Assembly (NCBI GenBank): GCA_964354495.1 | Contig: CAYHAA010000001.1 | Coordinates: 308,075 to 340,074 of the forward strand | DNA from: an uncultured archaeon | Lineage (GTDB): Archaea; Asgardarchaeota; Thorarchaeia; Thorarchaeales; Thorarchaeaceae | Direction of reading: 5' to 3' | DNA length: 32,000 nt | Made by a program: the position numbers and the translations under genes | Part shown: positions 11,782 through 20,040 of the stretch, in pieces | Numbering within the stretch: the stretch's first letter is position 1 | How the letters are laid out: every line of letters begins with the position of its first letter | The notes under the pieces: generated by a model | What the model was told of the DNA's origin: nothing | Seen by the model: only the letters and a program-made list of their open reading frames with translations | Databases searched by the model: none

Positions 11782-13374
11782 ATGCTTAAGACCACCCTTA
11801 CTTTTGAGGAATTGAAGAGGACCAATCATATAGAAATCAAAGAGATGCAGGAAAGGAAGTTCCGTGCATTCATACGATATCAGATATGGCCCAATCATCC
11901 CTATTATCGCCGTCTTTTCAAGGAAAACAAAGTTGACCCCTTCAACATCACTTGTTTTGAGGACTGGGCTAAGTACAATATTCCCCTCGTCAGAAAGGTC
12001 GAGTACAAGGATCATCTGCGGGAATTCGTACTGAACCCCTCTCAGGTCGATGGCGTGGATCGAGCCCCAGCTGAAATCATTAGGAATGTGATGACCTACT
12101 CAAAAGAGGCCGGAAATGATGATCAATACAAGTTCCTCCGCAACAATGGTGCTCGAGTCAAGCTTCACATTGGTGCCGAATCTGCAATGGAACGACTCAA
12201 AGGACGCATGACCTACAACTATTCACCCCTACAGTTCTGGCTCAGTTCAGGAAGAGCGTCCGGCCTCCCTTCGCCAGTCTTCTTAACACGATATGACAAC
12301 GATTTGCTTGAGAAGAACAGCGCGAAATGTGGCCAGCTTGCGATTGATAAGTTCGCGAAGGATGGGTGGCAAGCGTCCTCAATGAACCTATTCCCATATG
12401 CGCCGCATCTCGGCTGGCATGCTGTCAATGCTGGTCTGAGGCAGATAAGCAAGTTCTACATTGCCACGAGTGCTGGTGGAGCAATTCCAAGCGAAAAACT
12501 CGTTGATCTGGCAAAGGTCTTCAAGGCAAATGCTTTCACAGGAATGCCAAGCTATCTCAGAAACCGTTTCTTCAAAGCTGTGGCTGAGGCTGACTACGAA
12601 GCCCCGGAGAAGGTAGTCGTGCTCTTAGCAGGAGAGAAGATCTATCCGCGTGTTGCTGAAGACATCATTCAGATACTGACTGAAAAAGGGGCAAAGCAAG
12701 TACACCTTGTGGGAGGTTATGCCTCTTCAGAGAGCAAGGTCTCATTTGCGGTGCAATGTGACTATCACGGCCCCTATCATAATTTGTCGCCTGAGATTAT
12801 GTCATGGGAATTCGTCAGAATAAACAGTGATGGCACCTACGAGTTCGTGGACGAGGATGAACCGGGACACACCGTTCTATTCCATCTAGATAGCACCGGA
12901 ACTGTCTTCGAAGGCTTCCTCTTGGGAGATGTAGCAACAAAACATGAGGCTGGAAAATGCCCCATATGCGGTCTAGACGGCCAATTCTTCTGGGACATCG
13001 GAAGAACAAATGATGCCCAAGCGCAAATGGAAATCATGGGTCTAGCTGAAAAGAAGATTAAGGGCGCAACTGTGAATCTTACTGCGCTTCGTGCTGACCT
13101 CCTGAGTCTGGGTGAGGTCGAGGAGGTGCAGGTTGAAGTTGCTAAGGAAGATATGTCTGACCCCTATAGCATGGATGTACTCAACTTGTATATTGCACCG
13201 AAAGGCCCCAAGACCTCTGACTACTCCTCGCTGATAGCTCAAGTTCAAAAGATGACAAAGGAAAGCACTGAGGTAACTCCCAGTGTTGTGATCATTGGAT
13301 TTGAGGAGCTAGTCGAGAAAGCTGGCGGCATGAAGTTCATGGAGATCATCGACAGTAGACCTAAGCCTGCCTAG
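11782..13374 (+). CDS. phenylacetate-CoA ligase (PaaK)-like adenylate-forming enzyme
   Basis: HPYYRRLFKE..VDP, P-loop SSGRASGLP, GMPSYL, LLAGEK, GGYASSE, LGD, CPICG, KIKGATV. Confidence 0.82.
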   Translation: MLKTTLTFEELKRTNHIEIKEMQERKFRAFIRYQIWPNHPYYRRLFKENKVDPFNITCFEDWAKYNIPLVRKVEYKDHLREFVLNPSQVDGVDRAPAEIIRNVMTYSKEAGNDDQYKFLRNNGARVKLHIGAESAMERLKGRMTYNYSPLQFWLSSGRASGLPSPVFLTRYDNDLLEKNSAKCGQLAIDKFAKDGWQASSMNLFPYAPHLGWHAVNAGLRQISKFYIATSAGGAIPSEKLVDLAKVFKANAFTGMPSYLRNRFFKAVAEADYEAPEKVVVLLAGEKIYPRVAEDIIQILTEKGAKQVHLVGGYASSESKVSFAVQCDYHGPYHNLSPEIMSWEFVRINSDGTYEFVDEDEPGHTVLFHLDSTGTVFEGFLLGDVATKHEAGKCPICGLDGQFFWDIGRTNDAQAQMEIMGLAEKKIKGATVNLTALRADLLSLGEVEEVQVEVAKEDMSDPYSMDVLNLYIAPKGPKTSDYSSLIAQVQKMTKESTEVTPSVVIIGFEELVEKAGGMKFMEIIDSRPKPA

Positions 13375-13409
13375 TAGTTTAGAAACGTGTCGACTAATCA
13401 TGGGCTGAA

Positions 13410-13751
13410 TCACGTGGCACTCTTGAATCTCTCTTTCATGCCAGGCAGGTTCAGGTAAACTACTATTATGGCGGACAGGATGACTCCTATCCAGTTCCCC
13501 CCGAACAGGGAGAACGCGAATCCAATTATGTTTAGAATGACTGCCCATGTCCATGCATATCCTTGCATTGTAAACAACCCATAGGCAATGAAGAGACCAA
13601 ACAGACCTACTATGGCGAAGGGTATTGCAATCAGCAGTCCAAGAATCGGGATTAGCAGGTATGCAGCGCCCTGGAGGAGTACTCCGAGGGCTTGAAGTGC
13701 CTGCAATACTGCTAGAATCAGTACTCCAATAGGTAAGCTCTTCTGAGTCAT
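13410..13751 (-). CDS. small 4-TM membrane protein
   Basis: Four hydrophobic segments; GGTGTGA RBS; C-terminal 'YL..P..K..F' pattern. Confidence 0.7.
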   Translation of the reverse strand: MTQKSLPIGVLILAVLQALQALGVLLQGAAYLLIPILGLLIAIPFAIVGLFGLFIAYGLFTMQGYAWTWAVILNIIGFAFSLFGGNWIGVILSAIIVVYLNLPGMKERFKSAT

Positions 13752-13845
13752 TGATAGTCACACCGAATACATCTCTGAATATGGCTTGTTAGTAATCCTA
13801 CGTAATGGTTGCCCGCGCTTCGAGGCATCTCTCGAGAATGTGAGT

Positions 13846-13873
13846 CTGCCCGAGGAAAAGAGACCCCGGGCAG
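13846..13873 (-). terminator. GC-rich stem-loop just downstream of the arcE-like stop codon (terminator or RNA stability element)
   Basis: Minus strand CTGCCCGGGG-TCTCTTTT-CCTCGGGCAG: 10-bp stem with one G-U pair and an 8-nt loop, 9 nt after the TGA. Confidence 0.4.
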
Positions 13874-13882
13874 TTAGTATAA

Positions 13883-15214
13883 TCATTTCAGATTATGTTT
13901 CTTCACAAACTCGGTCAAAATATCCACAAGGTCCGGTTTCCCAATCTCCTGCAAGTCATATCTGACTCTAACACTAGGCTTGGTAATGTTGACTACACGG
14001 TTCAGGTCAATCGGTGTTCCGATTACCACTGCATCCACATCCGCCTTGTTGATGGTTTCTTGGAGTTCAGATACCTGCTTCTTTCCGTAGCCCATCGCGG
14101 GAAGAACATTCTCAAGATGACCGTATTTCTCGAAAGTGTCTCTGATACTTCCAACAGCAAACGGCCTTGGATCCACAATTATGGCTCCGGCCTTCCTTGC
14201 AGCTATGAACCCAGCACCATAGGGCATCTCCCCGTGTGTTACGGTGGGTCCATCCTCTACCACAATGACTCTCTTTCCGCGAATCGATTCCATCTTTTCG
14301 ATTGTGAGGGGTGATGCTCCATCGATGATGATTGCCTTGGGATTTACAGCCATAATGTTCTCTCTGATCTCTTCCACATCCTCATAGTCTGCAGTGTCAA
14401 TCTTGTTGATGATAACTACATCCGCCATCCTAAGGTTTGTCTCGCCTGGGTAGTATGATACTTCGTGACCAGGCCTGTGAGCATCAGCGATGACAATGAG
14501 TAGGTCTGGCTTGTAGAACGAGAAGTCGTTGTTGCCACCATCCCATGTGATAACATCCGCTTCTTTTTCTGCCTGCTCAAGAATCTTGCCATAGTCCACT
14601 CCTGCGTAAAGAATGACTCCCATATTGATCATGGGCTCATACTCCTCACGTTCCTCTATCGTGCACCTATACTTGTCCATGTCCTCCAGGTTCTCATACC
14701 TCTGTGCAATCTGCGATGTGAGGTCTGGATCATATGGCATCGGGTGCCTGATGTTGACCGGTTTGAGATCCATATCCACTAGAATCTGGTTCACGCGTCT
14801 TGACGTCTGGCTCTTACCGCAACCTGTCCGAACAGCACAGATTGCCACAACTGGCTTCTTGCTCTTTATCGAAGTCGTTTTCGGACCCATGAAACGAATA
14901 TCAGGACCGAGCTTATTGACCCAGGCTATTTTGTGACCAACCACCTCATATGGAAGATCCGAATAGGCGAGAATACACTGCTCAACATCGAACTTCTTGA
15001 TTAGTTCTGGCAGTTTCCCTTCAGGATATATCTTGATACCTTTTGGGTAGAGTGGCCCCGCAAGTTCTGGAGGGTACATTCGATCTCCGATTCCAGGGAT
15101 TTGTTCAGCAGTGAAGGCCACAACCTCATAATCTTCGTTATTTCGGAAGTAGACATTGAAGTTATGGAAGTCGCGACCAGCGGCGCCCATGATGATTATT
15201 TTCTTCTTGCTCAT
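13883..15214 (-). CDS. arcE: ArcE-like arginine synthetase (COG2403 P-loop 'GTPase' family)
   Basis: Family signature IMGAAGRDFHNFN..F....YEVVAFTA.QIP.I..R.YPPELAG.LYP.GI, Walker A RTGCGKS, WDGGNND, VEDGPTVTHGEM. Confidence 0.75.
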   Translation of the reverse strand: MSKKKIIIMGAAGRDFHNFNVYFRNNEDYEVVAFTAEQIPGIGDRMYPPELAGPLYPKGIKIYPEGKLPELIKKFDVEQCILAYSDLPYEVVGHKIAWVNKLGPDIRFMGPKTTSIKSKKPVVAICAVRTGCGKSQTSRRVNQILVDMDLKPVNIRHPMPYDPDLTSQIAQRYENLEDMDKYRCTIEEREEYEPMINMGVILYAGVDYGKILEQAEKEADVITWDGGNNDFSFYKPDLLIVIADAHRPGHEVSYYPGETNLRMADVVIINKIDTADYEDVEEIRENIMAVNPKAIIIDGASPLTIEKMESIRGKRVIVVEDGPTVTHGEMPYGAGFIAARKAGAIIVDPRPFAVGSIRDTFEKYGHLENVLPAMGYGKKQVSELQETINKADVDAVVIGTPIDLNRVVNITKPSVRVRYDLQEIGKPDLVDILTEFVKKHNLK

Positions 15215-15385
15215 TTTGAGTCCACTCCACTTGTCGGTGGGTTCACGGCAAATTGACCCATCAGGCAGGTTAAGTAATTGTTGGTCTATTCAATAGTGTA
15301 GAATGCACAATGAGTTGGACATTCTAGCACAGCTGTGTATCGACTATCGGACAGTTTTACTAGAATTGATTAATAGTGATTATGC

Positions 15386-15449
15386 CTTCGGAAAATCGCA
15401 GTTAAAATCTTCCGAAGATGGGTTCGCAAAATCGAACCGAATCCGGAAA
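15386..15449. promoter_or_regulatory. cluster of direct and inverted repeats upstream of the E2F-like gene (candidate operator)
   Basis: TTCGGAAAATCG (15387-98) and TTCGCAAAATCG (15423-34); inverted pairs CTTCGGAA/TTCCGAAG (15386-93/15410-17) and GGTTCG/CGAACC (15421-26/15433-38). Confidence 0.4.
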
Positions 15450-15536
15450 CAATACAAAGCATTAAATACGCGGTGCTTCCATTATGAAAGAAGAGCGTTT
15501 TTCTGAGCCCATCGCCGGATTGATAAGTGGGGTGCA

Positions 15537-16091
15537 TTGTTGAAGCTAGTTGAATTGGCTCTGGAGTCAGTCAGGATTCTGAAGGATGCAGGGGAGGCCG
15601 GTATCAAGAGCGACATATTAGCTCAACGGCTCAATACTCCTAAACGCAGAGTGTATGATGTCATCGCTGTTCTAAGGTCTCTAGGCCAAGTGGATACAAG
15701 TAGAAAGTTCGATGGGACAACGATTGTATGGATAGATCATTCAAAGGATTTCATCCCAAGGCAAAATCATGAAGAACTGCGAGTTCGGCTGAATCAAGAA
15801 AGTGAGGAACGCAAGCAGTTTCAAGTCCAAGTAGCAGAGTTAAAAGAGCAACTCAGAATCACAAAATCCAAACTCAGAAGAGATGTCCAGGCTATTGAGA
15901 TGGTAAACAAGACCGAGTTTCTAACGACACAACTCCGGGTACGTGCACTATCAAGTAATGGAATCAAGAAGGTCGAACATTCGGGAATCGAAGTCCTCAT
16001 TGAGACCCATGAATCCGGCATGGTGGCTGACCCAACTGAACTAGAGGTTGACGAAAACGCAGCTCTTCTGAAGAACCTGCAGCGCATATGA
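15537..16091 (+). CDS. E2F/DP-like winged-helix transcription factor with coiled coil and a beta-rich C-terminal domain
   Basis: GGGGTG RBS + TTG; KRRVYDVIAVLRSLG...IVW matches the E2F/DP RRxYD recognition helix; coiled coil follows. Confidence 0.75.
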   Translation: MLKLVELALESVRILKDAGEAGIKSDILAQRLNTPKRRVYDVIAVLRSLGQVDTSRKFDGTTIVWIDHSKDFIPRQNHEELRVRLNQESEERKQFQVQVAELKEQLRITKSKLRRDVQAIEMVNKTEFLTTQLRVRALSSNGIKKVEHSGIEVLIETHESGMVADPTELEVDENAALLKNLQRI

Positions 16092-16096
16092 TCATG

Positions 16097-16483
16097 TCAT
16101 AATGTCTTGATGTGCACCATGCTACCTCTTCTTACACCCCTCAGAGAATTGATTCGGTCTGCATTTGACGTCACCTTACCCAGAATATTGACTTGACTAT
16201 AGGTATGTCCATTATCCAGATAGATACAGAGTGCGTCTCCAAGCGGCATATATGCGATGTCGCCCTTCTTCACTTCGTTAGTAGGTTTGGCGTTTCCCTT
16301 TGATATGCCCAAAGTGATTTGCAGCTCGTTTCGTACGAGTGCAATTCGTCCTTCCAGAGGGAGTCTAAATTTTATCTCCTCAACGAGGAGAGGGGCATGA
16401 ATCCTGTTGATGATTCCTTCAATTGCAATGCCCCCTTCAAAGTTGAACACAAGATGGACATCTGTATCACTCAAATCTGGCAT
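16097..16483 (-). CDS. cyclophilin-like fold protein (TM1367/AF2241-like)
   Basis: APLLVEEI...LPL, EVKKGDIAYMPLGDALCIYL, VNILGKV. Confidence 0.75.
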   Translation of the reverse strand: MPDLSDTDVHLVFNFEGGIAIEGIINRIHAPLLVEEIKFRLPLEGRIALVRNELQITLGISKGNAKPTNEVKKGDIAYMPLGDALCIYLDNGHTYSQVNILGKVTSNADRINSLRGVRRGSMVHIKTL

Positions 16484-16554
16484 ACGTCTTCCTTCGTGTA
16501 TCGCCCTAAAATGTGCTGCGCTTAGTTCTTCGGCAAAGGCTTAATTGGACACAT

Positions 16555-17709
16555 ATGGTGGTAGATTTGGAGAGAACGAGACTGCCATCTACCAAGCTTG
16601 ATGTCGCATTTGTTGTTGACACAACTGGATCAATGAAAGATGATATCAAAGCGGTGAAGGACAGTCTCTCTGAAATAGTGAGCCATATCACATCACGAAC
16701 GAAGGACCTTGGGATTAGATTCGGCATCGTTTCATACCGCGACCATCCTCCACAAGATAGATCCTATGTGACCAAGTATTTCGACTTCATAGACAATGTG
16801 AAACGAGTCCAAAAGATCATTGCTGATCTTCAACCATCTGATGGAGGCGACACTCCCGAAGCGGTCGCTGATGGTCTATTTGATGCACGCACAAAGCTAT
16901 CTTGGGAGAAGGATGCTTACAAAGTACTGCTTCTTGTCGGAGACGCACCTCCACATGGGAGAAGATACAATTCTCTCGGTGATGACTACTTTGTTGACGG
17001 CTGCCCGGATGGTCATGATCCGATTGAAGAAGTGCAGCAGCTGAGAAAGGATTTTGGTACGACGCTGTTTATTTTCATATGTGGCTGCAACCCGCTTGTT
17101 GAAACAGCATTCCAACAGATTGCAGATTCTGTTGATGGTGGCAAGTATTACTCATTGTTGGAGGCACATGAACTTCCAGAAGCAATTCTGAAGATACTTG
17201 AGGGAGTCAGTAATCTCATTGAAGCCGATAGGAAAGTCTTGTCCTACTATCAAGCTAATGATGGGACGTTCGATATGGGTGAGGCCGCTTCGAAGCTCGG
17301 TCTTGAGGTCCGTGAACTGAAGACTTCTCTATCTAGGCTCCTTGAACTTGGCAGAATCGTACGATGGCCAAAGGGGAGACCTCTCACATCTGAGCAAATA
17401 GGCATCTCTGTGAATCTTGGTGAGATTCCGAACAACATAGTCGCTGGAAGAGCCTTCAACTACTCTATCAGAGTCAAGAATCCAAGTGCGGCTATTGGGA
17501 GCATCAGGGTGGTAGTATCACTCGTCACAGCCGAGGGTGTATCTGAGGTAACGAATGAGCGTCATGACATAGCGGCCAAATCTGATAAGAAGCTCGAGCT
17601 CAAGCTCGTTCCAATGACTGATGTGAGAGAGAAAGCGACGCTCCGAGTTGAGGTCTTCTATGGCTCAAAATCAATTGCCACTGAGATCTACTCGACACGT
17701 ATCTACTGA
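16555..17709 (+). CDS. vWA-domain protein (intact MIDAS) + winged helix + C-terminal Ig-like beta sandwich
   Basis: LDVAFVVDTTGSM, GGDTPEA, LVGDAPPHG; wHTH 'FDMGEAASKLGLEVRELKTSLSRLLELGRI'; beta-rich tail. Start uncertain (16513, 16555, 16567 or 16582). Confidence 0.85.
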   Translation: MVVDLERTRLPSTKLDVAFVVDTTGSMKDDIKAVKDSLSEIVSHITSRTKDLGIRFGIVSYRDHPPQDRSYVTKYFDFIDNVKRVQKIIADLQPSDGGDTPEAVADGLFDARTKLSWEKDAYKVLLLVGDAPPHGRRYNSLGDDYFVDGCPDGHDPIEEVQQLRKDFGTTLFIFICGCNPLVETAFQQIADSVDGGKYYSLLEAHELPEAILKILEGVSNLIEADRKVLSYYQANDGTFDMGEAASKLGLEVRELKTSLSRLLELGRIVRWPKGRPLTSEQIGISVNLGEIPNNIVAGRAFNYSIRVKNPSAAIGSIRVVVSLVTAEGVSEVTNERHDIAAKSDKKLELKLVPMTDVREKATLRVEVFYGSKSIATEIYSTRIY

Positions 17710-17722
17710 TGGAGGACTACCT

Positions 17723-18877
17723 TTGATTCTAATCGCCAAACAGGGACGGAATCAGAAAGGTCTCTGCTTTGTACCCGCTGACGAACCTGATTATGAACCG
17801 GGTGTCTACGAACTCAGCTTTCGGGAACGCACACTTCTTGCTGACGTCCGCAAGTCAGCTCAGGTTTCCGATAACATGATTATTCTAGATAGTCGTGTGT
17901 TTGCCATGATGAATTGCAGCGATGGGTCTGAAATATCACTTACGCGAATCTGCGACGATTTGCCGGTCTGCAGAGAACTTGGGTTGGCTGTGGCATCCAC
18001 AAAGTCCCTAGATAATAATGCAGTAGCTAATGCAATCTCAAAGAGGGTCAATGATCTCCAGGAAGACTTTGATGGACTAGTGCTAACAAAGAATCAGAGG
18101 ATTCTGCTAGGACGCCTTGGAGTTCAACTCACAGTGGACTTACTCAAACCAGTGGATGATGGACACCTTTCTTGTCGATTAAGATGGAGCAGTCTTGAGA
18201 AGATACACCTTGACCCAGGAGTAGAAGCTCCAGCATACAACCTCATTTGTGTGATTGAGCTTGGAGCGGCAGCCCACATTACTGATGTCCTGCAGTCCTC
18301 TACGGGTGGTGATTCGGTTTCAGTTCCCCGGTATTCCGCTGCAATTGAACTTCTACATCAGATTGAACTCGGCTACTCCGGATATGGCACAGGAGCTCAA
18401 TTCTCAGGCATTGCGTATTCAGACGAGGTGGTAACCTATCCGATGTTTGATTCGGAATCAGGACAACTGGTCGAGATATCACCACTTCACTCAAAGTCTA
18501 TGTTGGAATCATTTAGAAACTGGATTGGCGAAGTAGCTCCCACGCATGGCCGCAAATCCTCGAATCCCGGTGCCGCTTTGAACGCCGCAATCGAGCGGGC
18601 ATTGGGCATACCGGATTCAATCGATCACCCTACGATTGTGGTTCTCCTCTCAAGCGGTACGCATTCATCTGGCCAAAACCCGTTGAAGATTGTGAAAAAG
18701 AAGGGGGAGAACAGGTCCGTACCAGTGTTATGTTTTTGCCTGGGAGAAGATTCAAACAGGGATATGATGAAGGCAATTGCAGAGTACACAAAAGGAATTG
18801 CCGTCGAAATCACTGACATGGGTCAAGTGAATATGGTCAATGAACGGCTTGCGGAGTGGTTTCGAGATAGGAGTTGA
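17723..18877 (+). CDS. CDC48/NSF-N-like domains + vWA with a degenerate MIDAS
   Basis: GGAGG RBS + TTG 17723; 'NMIILDSRVFAMMNCSDGSEISL' double-psi-barrel pattern; vWA strand 'YNLICVIELGAAA' lacks DxSxS; alignable to 24694..25989. Confidence 0.65.
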   Translation: MILIAKQGRNQKGLCFVPADEPDYEPGVYELSFRERTLLADVRKSAQVSDNMIILDSRVFAMMNCSDGSEISLTRICDDLPVCRELGLAVASTKSLDNNAVANAISKRVNDLQEDFDGLVLTKNQRILLGRLGVQLTVDLLKPVDDGHLSCRLRWSSLEKIHLDPGVEAPAYNLICVIELGAAAHITDVLQSSTGGDSVSVPRYSAAIELLHQIELGYSGYGTGAQFSGIAYSDEVVTYPMFDSESGQLVEISPLHSKSMLESFRNWIGEVAPTHGRKSSNPGAALNAAIERALGIPDSIDHPTIVVLLSSGTHSSGQNPLKIVKKKGENRSVPVLCFCLGEDSNRDMMKAIAEYTKGIAVEITDMGQVNMVNERLAEWFRDRS

Positions 18878-20040
18878 TTCCTGTGAAGGACGATTTGCCA
18901 ACACGACTTCAAGCTATGTTCCATAGTGGAGAAATCACTGAATTCATCTCTGCACAGATGCCTACAGAAAAGCTCAGCACGGGATGGATGGAACAAGGTC
19001 TTCTTCTCAAGGGCTTCACTGGAAAGCTGGAGGATAGAAAGAACCAGGAACAACTCATCATTCCTGCTGACAGATTTGCACGTTTGACAAGAGACCTTGA
19101 AGGGCTATCACGACCATTTGTCGGCCTGTTAATCCTAGGCAGTCAAGGTCTAGTTACGCCCAAGTTGTGCATCGTGGTATACGACGCACTCGAGGAAAGC
19201 AGCAAGCCAATGATGACTGTAGCCTTCTGGACCAAGAACTTGAGCTTCAGTGAAATCACTCGTATCATAACACAGCATGTGCTAGGACATGGCATTTCTA
19301 GTAGAAAGACTGAGCCGGACTTGGATTACATAGAACAACTTAGAGCAGGTGTTTCCACTGGTGAAGTTCGAAGTCTACTCTCTCTCAAGGTTCCCGCAGA
19401 GAAGCAGAATGTCACAGAATGGTTTCGTGATTCCGCAAAGCAAGTGAATGGATCTAAAAGAGCAATTGCGGCTGAGGGGGACCTGAATAGTCTGTCGAGA
19501 ATCACACTTCTTCTCGCTCGCTGGTTGACAAGCCTCGACCTTTTCAAGAGAGCCAAGAACAATATCGCAGCTATTCTCTTCAAGTTCAGTGATAGAACAG
19601 AACTCTGCCTGTGGGATAGCCCTCATGGCATGGCTTCGTTTGCAGCATTGAACAGAACTGACATTGAAAACATGATTGATAGATATGTGACGCCCATGTG
19701 GTCCGGTTCACAGGATTTTGGCGTGTCTGGTGTAGGTGCACCAGAGGTTGTAATTGGAAAGAGAACAGAATCACGAGAAGAAAACCGTAAGTCGAAAGTC
19801 ATGGCATCTCATCAGATAGATCATACTATCCTAAGTCAGATTAGAACGAAACTGGAAATGCTAGAGACTCGCCTTCAAGCCCTAGAAAACGCACCAGGAG
19901 ATAAGACAGTCACTACTGACCAGTCAATAGCAATTGTACAAACCAAGCTTGCAGAAACGATTAACCGTCTTGAATCTGTTGTGGCTAGATTGAGTGACCT
20001 AGAATCGCGTATAAAGCGTGTGAGTAAGTCTGCAGGGTGA
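18874..20040 (+). CDS. hypothetical protein with C-terminal coiled coil
   Basis: 4-nt overlap with the upstream gene (translational coupling); heptad-rich last ~70 aa. Confidence 0.7.
   Translation: MIPVKDDLPTRLQAMFHSGEITEFISAQMPTEKLSTGWMEQGLLLKGFTGKLEDRKNQEQLIIPADRFARLTRDLEGLSRPFVGLLILGSQGLVTPKLCIVVYDALEESSKPMMTVAFWTKNLSFSEITRIITQHVLGHGISSRKTEPDLDYIEQLRAGVSTGEVRSLLSLKVPAEKQNVTEWFRDSAKQVNGSKRAIAAEGDLNSLSRITLLLARWLTSLDLFKRAKNNIAAILFKFSDRTELCLWDSPHGMASFAALNRTDIENMIDRYVTPMWSGSQDFGVSGVGAPEVVIGKRTESREENRKSKVMASHQIDHTILSQIRTKLEMLETRLQALENAPGDKTVTTDQSIAIVQTKLAETINRLESVVARLSDLESRIKRVSKSAG

Follow-up and report, generated by a model that had tools for sequence, protein, structure and literature searches.

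The 32,000-nucleotide stretch of Thorarchaeaceae DNA analyzed here (hereafter, the window), part of a 3.3-Mb genome in 51 contigs, carries at positions 15537–16091 of the forward strand a gene for a small protein that resembles the E2F/DP transcription factors of eukaryotes. E2F/DP drives the G1/S transcription program of eukaryotic cells, and a prokaryotic root of these factors bears on the origin of the eukaryotic cell cycle. Counted from the first TTG codon, the protein has 184 amino acids (aa); the orthologs begin M-KLVELA, which makes the second TTG (15540) the more probable start. This second TTG lies 5 nucleotides (nt) downstream of the hexamer GGGGTG (15529–15534, forward strand), which resembles a ribosome-binding site and is the only block of the leader that is invariant upstream of the orthologs (20 of 20 aligned). 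A first-pass annotation, made from the letters of the window, had proposed a single-gene E2F/DP-like factor, and a six-frame search of the genome with the Pfam model PF02319 (32.8 bits) found the gene in a single copy. Homologs of ~183 aa number 173, with PF02319 in all those listed, and the proteins matched most closely bear the label Candidatus Thorarchaeota.

Several parts follow one another along the protein, all encoded on the forward strand. The winged-helix DNA-binding domain spans 15537–15734 (residues 1–66; E2F_TDP match at residues 13–66), and its recognition helix holds RRVYD, the base-contact motif of E2F/DP, at 15645–15659 (residues 37–41). Behind it come a leucine-zipper-type coiled coil at 15759–15908 (residues 75–124), predicted to be parallel and in register in a homodimer, and a C-terminal beta module at 15909–16037 (residues 125–167), predicted to intertwine between the chains. 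The last helix, at 16053–16085 (residues 173–183), is found mainly in Thorarchaeota members. AlphaFold models show the winged helix (1–66), a single long helix (75–124), the strands and the final helix (173–183), with strands at about residues 119–121, 126–128, 132–137, 143–148, 153–157 and 162–167; a separate model of residues 66–184 has a predicted local distance difference test score (pLDDT) of 84. The coiled coil that the first-pass annotation had placed behind the winged helix is thus present, with a length of about 50 aa rather than ~45. As the annotation had also stated, there is no Rb-binding tail: the chain stops at residue 184, a single short helix past the beta module, with no acidic, transactivation or Rb-binding extension.

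The winged helix and the Asgard E2F/DP family

Could the RRxYD motif be a chance occurrence in a generic archaeal winged helix-turn-helix protein of the TrmB or MarR kind? Weak, sub-threshold Pfam matches to TrmB, HTH_11 and RPA_C point in that direction, as does a Foldseek comparison of the full-length model with the PDB, which returned generic winged helices, many of them above E2F4 at rank 37. On the other hand, the PF02319 search that the first-pass annotation had named as a check gave E2F_TDP as the top match, with a score of 31.7 bits (E 1.2e-7) over residues 13–66, the cut-off being 25.7, and E2F_TDP stood above its curated cut-off in 10 of 10 more distant relatives scanned. In the PDB, a profile of 29 orthologs matched E2F8 (4yo2) and E2F4 (1cf7) at their DNA-binding domains. 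When run against 1.84 billion representative proteins, the same profile returned 61, consisting of its own family and eukaryotic E2F-type proteins. All ten of the eukaryotic E2F-type matches scanned with Pfam contained PF02319, and seven also contained PF16421 at E <= 0.001; two-winged-helix proteins like the atypical E2F7/8 were among the E2F-type matches. Neither TrmB/MarR proteins (among the scanned matches) nor a DP domain (in 0 of 10 non-family matches scanned) were found. Furthermore, hhalign aligned the archaeal family with 27 diverse E2Fs at a probability of 98.5% (P 1.9e-15) over 103 columns, covering query residues 7–112; R37, R38, Y40, D41 and W65 are invariant in 16 members of 22–57% identity; and E2F4 has the highest identity (28%) among the structural matches. 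An NCBIfam scan of the protein gave no match. The PF02319 score, the reciprocal profile search, the hhalign result and the invariance of RRxYD rule out a chance motif in a generic winged helix, an explanation to which we give almost no weight. These results show that the winged helix is a homolog of the eukaryotic E2F/DP DNA-binding domain, as the first-pass annotation had claimed.

The finer details of the domain were also described correctly by that annotation. Both KRRVYDVIAVLRSLG and RRVYD are present in the winged helix at the places given, and Ala44, invariant in the Thorarchaeota set, stands where E2F/DP have Asn (..YDITNVL..). The DP motif RRRVYD resembles the KRRVYD of this protein. 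In eukaryotic E2F1–6 (1CF7, 2AZE, 5TUU), the parts are arranged in the same order, with an RRxYD winged helix, a zipper and a beta-rich module of similar size. There are also several differences: an E2F has 300–450 aa and Asn in the conserved position, whereas this protein has 184 aa and Ala; an E2F carries a transactivation/Rb-binding tail and a detectable marked box, and this protein has neither; DP proteins carry PF08781, which has no match here at E 10; and an E2F forms a heterodimer with DP, whereas the protein studied here is predicted to form a homodimer.

Whether such homologs had already been catalogued was left open by the first-pass annotation, and they have. Suppl. 4.1.5 of Eme et al. 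(2023, Nature 618:992, PMC10307638) describes E2F/DP homologs across most Asgard groups, absent from other archaea. The same source reports that the base-contact residues are conserved, so that similar DNA motifs are expected, describes the proteins as being without a dimerization domain, and proposes an Asgard homolog as the ancestor from which eukaryotic E2F/DP arose, probably via duplication and fusion. Its table of eukaryotic signature proteins includes entries for 'E2F/DP, PF02319' under arCOG02749, and E2F homologs in Asgard genomes are mentioned in a review (PMC7617429). One protein retrieved by our family profile search (P0155) is letter-identical to the Sifarchaeia entry WORA1_00190 in that table; the family studied here is therefore the published Asgard family, and the existence of these homologs, of which our gene is one, was already known. 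The ancestry of E2F/DP that the first-pass annotation suggested had likewise been proposed by Eme et al.; that the beta module derives from the marked box, which was part of the same idea, is not supported by the searches described below. The proteins of Eme et al. are likewise small, with a conserved winged helix and conserved base-contact residues. In contrast to their description, the E2F alignment here enters the zipper, and the coiled coil and beta module are predicted to homodimerize. Our literature search found no study on the structure or function of any Asgard E2F protein.

The family is patchily but widely distributed. PF02319 occurs in 124 of the 301 Asgard genomes surveyed, including 68 of 76 from the taxonomic family of the window, and in none of the 68, 28 and 21 genomes of three large families. 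Nearly all positive genomes have one PF02319 match each, and some have two family members. Among the named loci, the lineages represented are Thor-, Hermod-, Hel-, Hod-, Baldr- and Jordarchaeia and Asgardarchaeum. A 35%-identical member with a cyclophilin-like gene nearby also lies on a contig binned as the bacterium Deferrimicrobium (L087, DATKTP010000167.1), probably a mis-binned Asgard contig.

Predicted self-pairing and the C-terminal region

To model the homodimer, structure prediction was run with two copies of the protein and gave a score of 0.49, compared with 0.00 for the best of three controls. Among proteins of solved structure, 20 of 30 same-chain pairs and 1 of 23 single-chain proteins reach 0.49, counts that hold only roughly for a prediction made, as here, with a custom alignment. 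Three runs agreed in at least 92% of their contacts, and the pLDDT of the partner was at least 77. The predicted i-to-i contacts along residues 78–110 describe a parallel, in-register coiled coil; behind it, strand 131–136 of one chain is predicted to pair in antiparallel fashion with residues 151–157 of the other. The two winged helices are predicted to touch through helix 1 and the C-terminal half of helix 3, predicted contacts that resemble the DNA-binding interface of E2F–DP in 1CF7, and Ala44, at the Asn position of E2F/DP, falls within this predicted interface. E2F–DP complexes have been solved, and the passing score may partly reflect likeness to them. We conclude from the models that the protein most likely pairs with itself, which agrees with the "probably homodimeric" factor of the first-pass annotation. 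The single gene copy in this genome, and the single match in nearly all other positive genomes, also speaks for self-pairing.

If the prediction is correct, a dimerization region is present in the same position as in E2F, contrary to the literature wording, and its confirmation would correct that statement. The hhalign alignment with the E2Fs extends past the winged helix: it crosses a linker of matching length and takes in about the first 30 residues of the leucine zipper. In addition, family members give weak Pfam matches to the HALZ, bZIP and ZapB zippers. Judged by this alignment, the zipper corresponds to the E2F zipper, and the dimerization region sits where E2F has its coiled coil and marked box. 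It is not, however, recognizably the dimerization region of E2F/DP.

How far does the likeness to E2F extend beyond the zipper? According to one explanation, the E2F architecture is ancestral as a whole, and the coiled coil together with the beta module would be the direct homodimeric precursor of the coiled-coil/marked-box domain of E2F/DP. The same order of domains, their similar sizes and the alignment into the zipper are in its favor. E2F4–DP1 has been described as a heterodimeric coiled coil with a heterodimeric beta sandwich (PMC12154468), and the predicted parallel coiled coil and inter-chain beta pairing match that description. A language-model feature search with the C-terminal parts alone also placed two E2F_CC-MB clusters first among 7.7 million clusters, with scores of 0.77/0.76 for the protein of the window and 0.80/0.78 for a 33%-identical relative. 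These scores are below the trust line of 0.9, and shuffled proteins reach 0.8 in a third of cases; the search with a short member of the family (P0137) gave no usable match.

The direct comparisons argue against this explanation. The searches with PF16421 (E2F_CC-MB) and PF08781 (DP), named as checks in the first-pass annotation, found no match at E 10 in the full protein or in the C-terminal halves of 26 members, and PF16421 gave one noise match elsewhere in the genome (E 3.6). In hhalign comparisons, the beta module reached P 0.4–0.7 against the marked box of 27 E2Fs and P 0.13–0.73 against marked-box alignments of 10 and 27 sequences in local and global modes. Foldseek with the model of residues 66–184 (pLDDT 84) returned no E2F or DP from the PDB, AFDB-SwissProt or the ESM Atlas, a fold test limited by the poor representation of an interlocked dimer by a single chain. 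Only the protein's own family appeared in the ESM Atlas; the best weak rows of this model, which we set aside, were the coiled coil and oligonucleotide-binding (OB) domain of proteasome Rpt, uL6 and GatB. In a VIA-wide exhaustive alignment, the rows covered the long helix and not the beta module. Consequently, what stands of the "full marked-box layout" claimed for this protein is a beta-rich module in the marked-box position; similarity to the marked box was not detectable in sequence or fold.

Short members of the family also bear on this question. Eleven such proteins (P0137, P0143–P0145, P0147, P0151, P0154, P0155, P0159, P0160 and P0163) have 87–137 aa, mostly 113–137. In these short forms, the same beta module is joined directly to the winged helix without any coiled coil; it is thus the beta module, rather than the zipper, that always accompanies the winged helix. 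This counts against an architecture that is ancestral as a whole, which we consider unlikely, and our estimate that the beta module descends from the marked box is similarly low. A still more demanding proposal, which we regard as rather improbable, is that Asgard archaea already had the complete E2F plan in a single self-pairing protein, with a winged helix for reading a TTTGGCGCCAAA-type palindrome, a zipper and an interlocking beta module ancestral to the marked box, and that E2F and DP are the duplicated, heterodimerizing descendants of the whole protein. If this were true, the whole protein would be ancestral, and not only the DNA-binding domain as the literature states.

Alternatively, the protein might be a one-component, signal-responsive regulator in which an E2F/DP winged helix is joined to an Asgard-specific dimerization and sensor unit for a ligand or partner, with a few metabolic or envelope targets and no role in the cell cycle. 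The constancy of the beta module with or without the zipper is consistent with such a unit. Foldseek with the full-length model also gave weak rows to BusR (E 0.004–0.014; template modeling score 0.24–0.34), whose GntR-type winged helix, coiled coil and RCK_C sensor (7B5T/7OZ3) form an analogous architecture with a small C-terminal beta-rich domain. However, the winged helix of BusR belongs to a different family and the beta module shows no similarity to RCK_C, so that the likeness is one of architecture and an analogy only; nor did the fold searches recognize a ligand-binding fold in the beta module. We consider this alternative a serious possibility, better than that of an ancestral whole architecture and short of an even chance, and the genes described in the next section also bear on it.

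Candidate binding sites and candidate targets

Which DNA might the protein read? The E2F consensus is TTTSGCGC, and TTTGGCGCCAAA is its palindromic form. A two-fold symmetric dimer of E2F-type recognition helices would be expected to read a palindromic site, and the palindromic form of the consensus was chosen in advance as the motif to test. We found five copies of TTGGCGCCAA in the genome, three of them in intergenic DNA, which makes up 11% of the genome; permuted motifs averaged 0.5 intergenic copies and never exceeded 1. Across 16 genomes of the genus, TTGGCGCCAA occurs 64 times, compared with 14 for a backward control. The motifs TTTSGCGC, GGCGCC, GCGCGC and TCGCGA showed no clear intergenic excess in a genome-wide scan.

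Recurrent positions of the site were found by clustering the open reading frames (ORFs) that flank copies of TTGGCGCCAA. At the first position (group A), the site adjoins the same 261-aa gene in 13 genomes; this gene has no Pfam family and no solved relative. In 9 of 9 genomes of the genus, a perfect (T/A)TTGGCGCCAAA lies between −24 and −60 relative to an Alg14-like gene, and its flanks are unconserved; the footprint of group A is clean. In the genome of the window, this copy is at G000:C5:125214-125223, in the divergent region between the 261-aa gene and the Alg14-like gene. At the second position (group B), the site lies ~110 nt upstream of an HdrA/MvhD-like gene. Of 14 genomes of the genus, 8 carry a perfect copy and 2 more a copy with one mismatch; a second genus has a perfect copy in 3 of 3 genomes. 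The site is missing where the upstream region has been rearranged. The corresponding copy in the genome of the window (G000:C12:41707-41716) is ~100 nt before a 1151-aa HdrA/MvhD-like gene beside aconitase. A third recurrent position, which does not occur in this genome, is in or beside an uncharacterized ORF of ~260 aa, and three further positions are inside conserved ORFs and carry no information on regulation. In the distant members L084, L089 and L090, TTTGGCGC, GGCGCC or TTGGCGCC occurs within 200 nt upstream of the E2F-like genes themselves, in AT-rich DNA; these are three of twelve loci.

By analogy with E2F, the promoter regions of groups A and B are the best candidate targets of the E2F-like protein. 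Taken together, we think it probable that this protein, a Thorarchaeota member of the Asgard E2F/DP family, acts as a sequence-specific DNA-binding regulator, pairs with itself and reads a palindrome with a GGCGCC core. In this mechanism, the winged helix with its RRxYD base-contact residues would read the DNA, and self-pairing would be brought about by the parallel leucine-zipper coiled coil directly behind the winged helix and by the strand-interlocking beta module. The symmetric dimer would then read a palindromic GGCGCC-core site, for which (T/A)TTGGCGCCAA(A), conserved in at least two promoter regions of the genus, is the candidate.

Several observations weigh against this proposal. The predicted dimerization comes from a structure-prediction score, and the palindromes are tied to the protein only by the analogy of conserved contact residues. 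The backward control of TTGGCGCCAA differs from it in CpG content, and the group B palindrome is within a larger, partly conserved block, so that its footprint is less clean. The palindromes were not seen at the same genes in most of the other Thorarchaeota genera that have the protein, and the conserved motif upstream of the gene itself, TCGNAAAATCG, is not E2F-like. Moreover, the site-flanking genes scanned were HdrA/MvhD-like, aconitase, Alg14-like and unknown genes, not replication genes.

The nature of these genes is what would be expected of a sensor-type regulator with metabolic or envelope targets, and the conserved cyclophilin-like neighbor of the E2F-like gene (described below) also agrees with that alternative. 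The candidate target genes look metabolic or envelope-related, with nothing pointing toward a cell-cycle role: no perfect E2F-type palindrome was found beside a recognizable replication gene among the flanking genes scanned, and the analysis turned up no connection with replication or the cell cycle. A search of the genome for the Rb pocket domain RB_A (PF01858) gave no match, which would also fit a sensor-type regulator; the control likewise matched nowhere, so this is a weak negative. Compared with the published family, the additions made here are modest and computational, namely a predicted homodimerization region, conserved palindromes in two promoter regions and the cyclophilin-like neighbor.

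The upstream region and the neighboring genes

The upstream region of the gene has conserved elements of its own. Copy 1 of the upstream motif, TCGGAAAATCG, is at 15388–15398 (forward strand), and copy 2, TCGCAAAATCG, is at 15424–15434 (forward strand). Of the seven copies of TCGNAAAATCG in the 3.3-Mb genome, these two, 36 bp apart, are the only ones in intergenic DNA. We rejected TCGNAAAATCG as a regulon motif on these counts, both intergenic copies being at the E2F-like gene; the element is gene-specific and may be an operator. In the Thorarchaeota orthologs, TTCG(G/A)AAAATCG lies around −100 to −115, sometimes twice; the TCGNAAAATCG motif is conserved at this distance in about two thirds of them, and a variant, TTCGATAAATCG, is found in others. 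Just downstream of the two copies, ~70 nt before the start codon, is a promoter-like ACAAAG..TTAAATA at 15454–15468 (forward strand), which resembles a TFIIB recognition element (BRE) and TATA box; it is conserved in the orthologs, as ACAAA..TAAATA, and would serve as the promoter.

The leader (15490–15536) is also conserved in the orthologs and contains ..GTGCTC..GAGC.., then GCCGCCGGATT and then the GGGGTG described above. A short hairpin in the leader is not claimed, as RNAalifold gave no consensus structure for 20 orthologous leaders. The RNA evidence consists of three short metatranscriptome contigs, 95–99% alike, at 15499–15667, 15685–15826 and 15877–16026, which give neither strand nor level and could reflect DNA carry-over. 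The first of them, from a 95–99% identical relative, begins at 15499, within the leader.

On the other side of the E2F-like gene is a convergent cyclophilin-like gene (PF04126) at 16097–16483 on the reverse strand; 5 bp separate the stop codons of the two genes. In 74 of 80 loci, the E2F-like gene has the cyclophilin-like gene next to it, and these loci extend to classes whose E2F-like proteins are only 27–35% identical. Gene coordinates place the two tail to tail in eight Asgard families but not in three others, and the classes with the conserved pair are Thor, Hel, Hod, Baldr, Jord and Asgardarchaeum. The link is one of position: strict co-occurrence was rejected, the cyclophilin-like gene being present in 222 of the 301 genomes versus 124 for the E2F-like gene. 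If the pairing is confirmed as meaningful, the cyclophilin-like protein would be a candidate partner of the E2F-like protein, with the conserved G-x-h-V-x-P end of its beta module as a possible point of contact. The pair is part of a block at 11782–20040 that is syntenic throughout the Thorarchaeota loci and comprises a 530-aa gene, a 443-aa CobW-like GTPase gene (13883–15214, reverse strand), the E2F-like gene, the cyclophilin-like gene and vWA genes.
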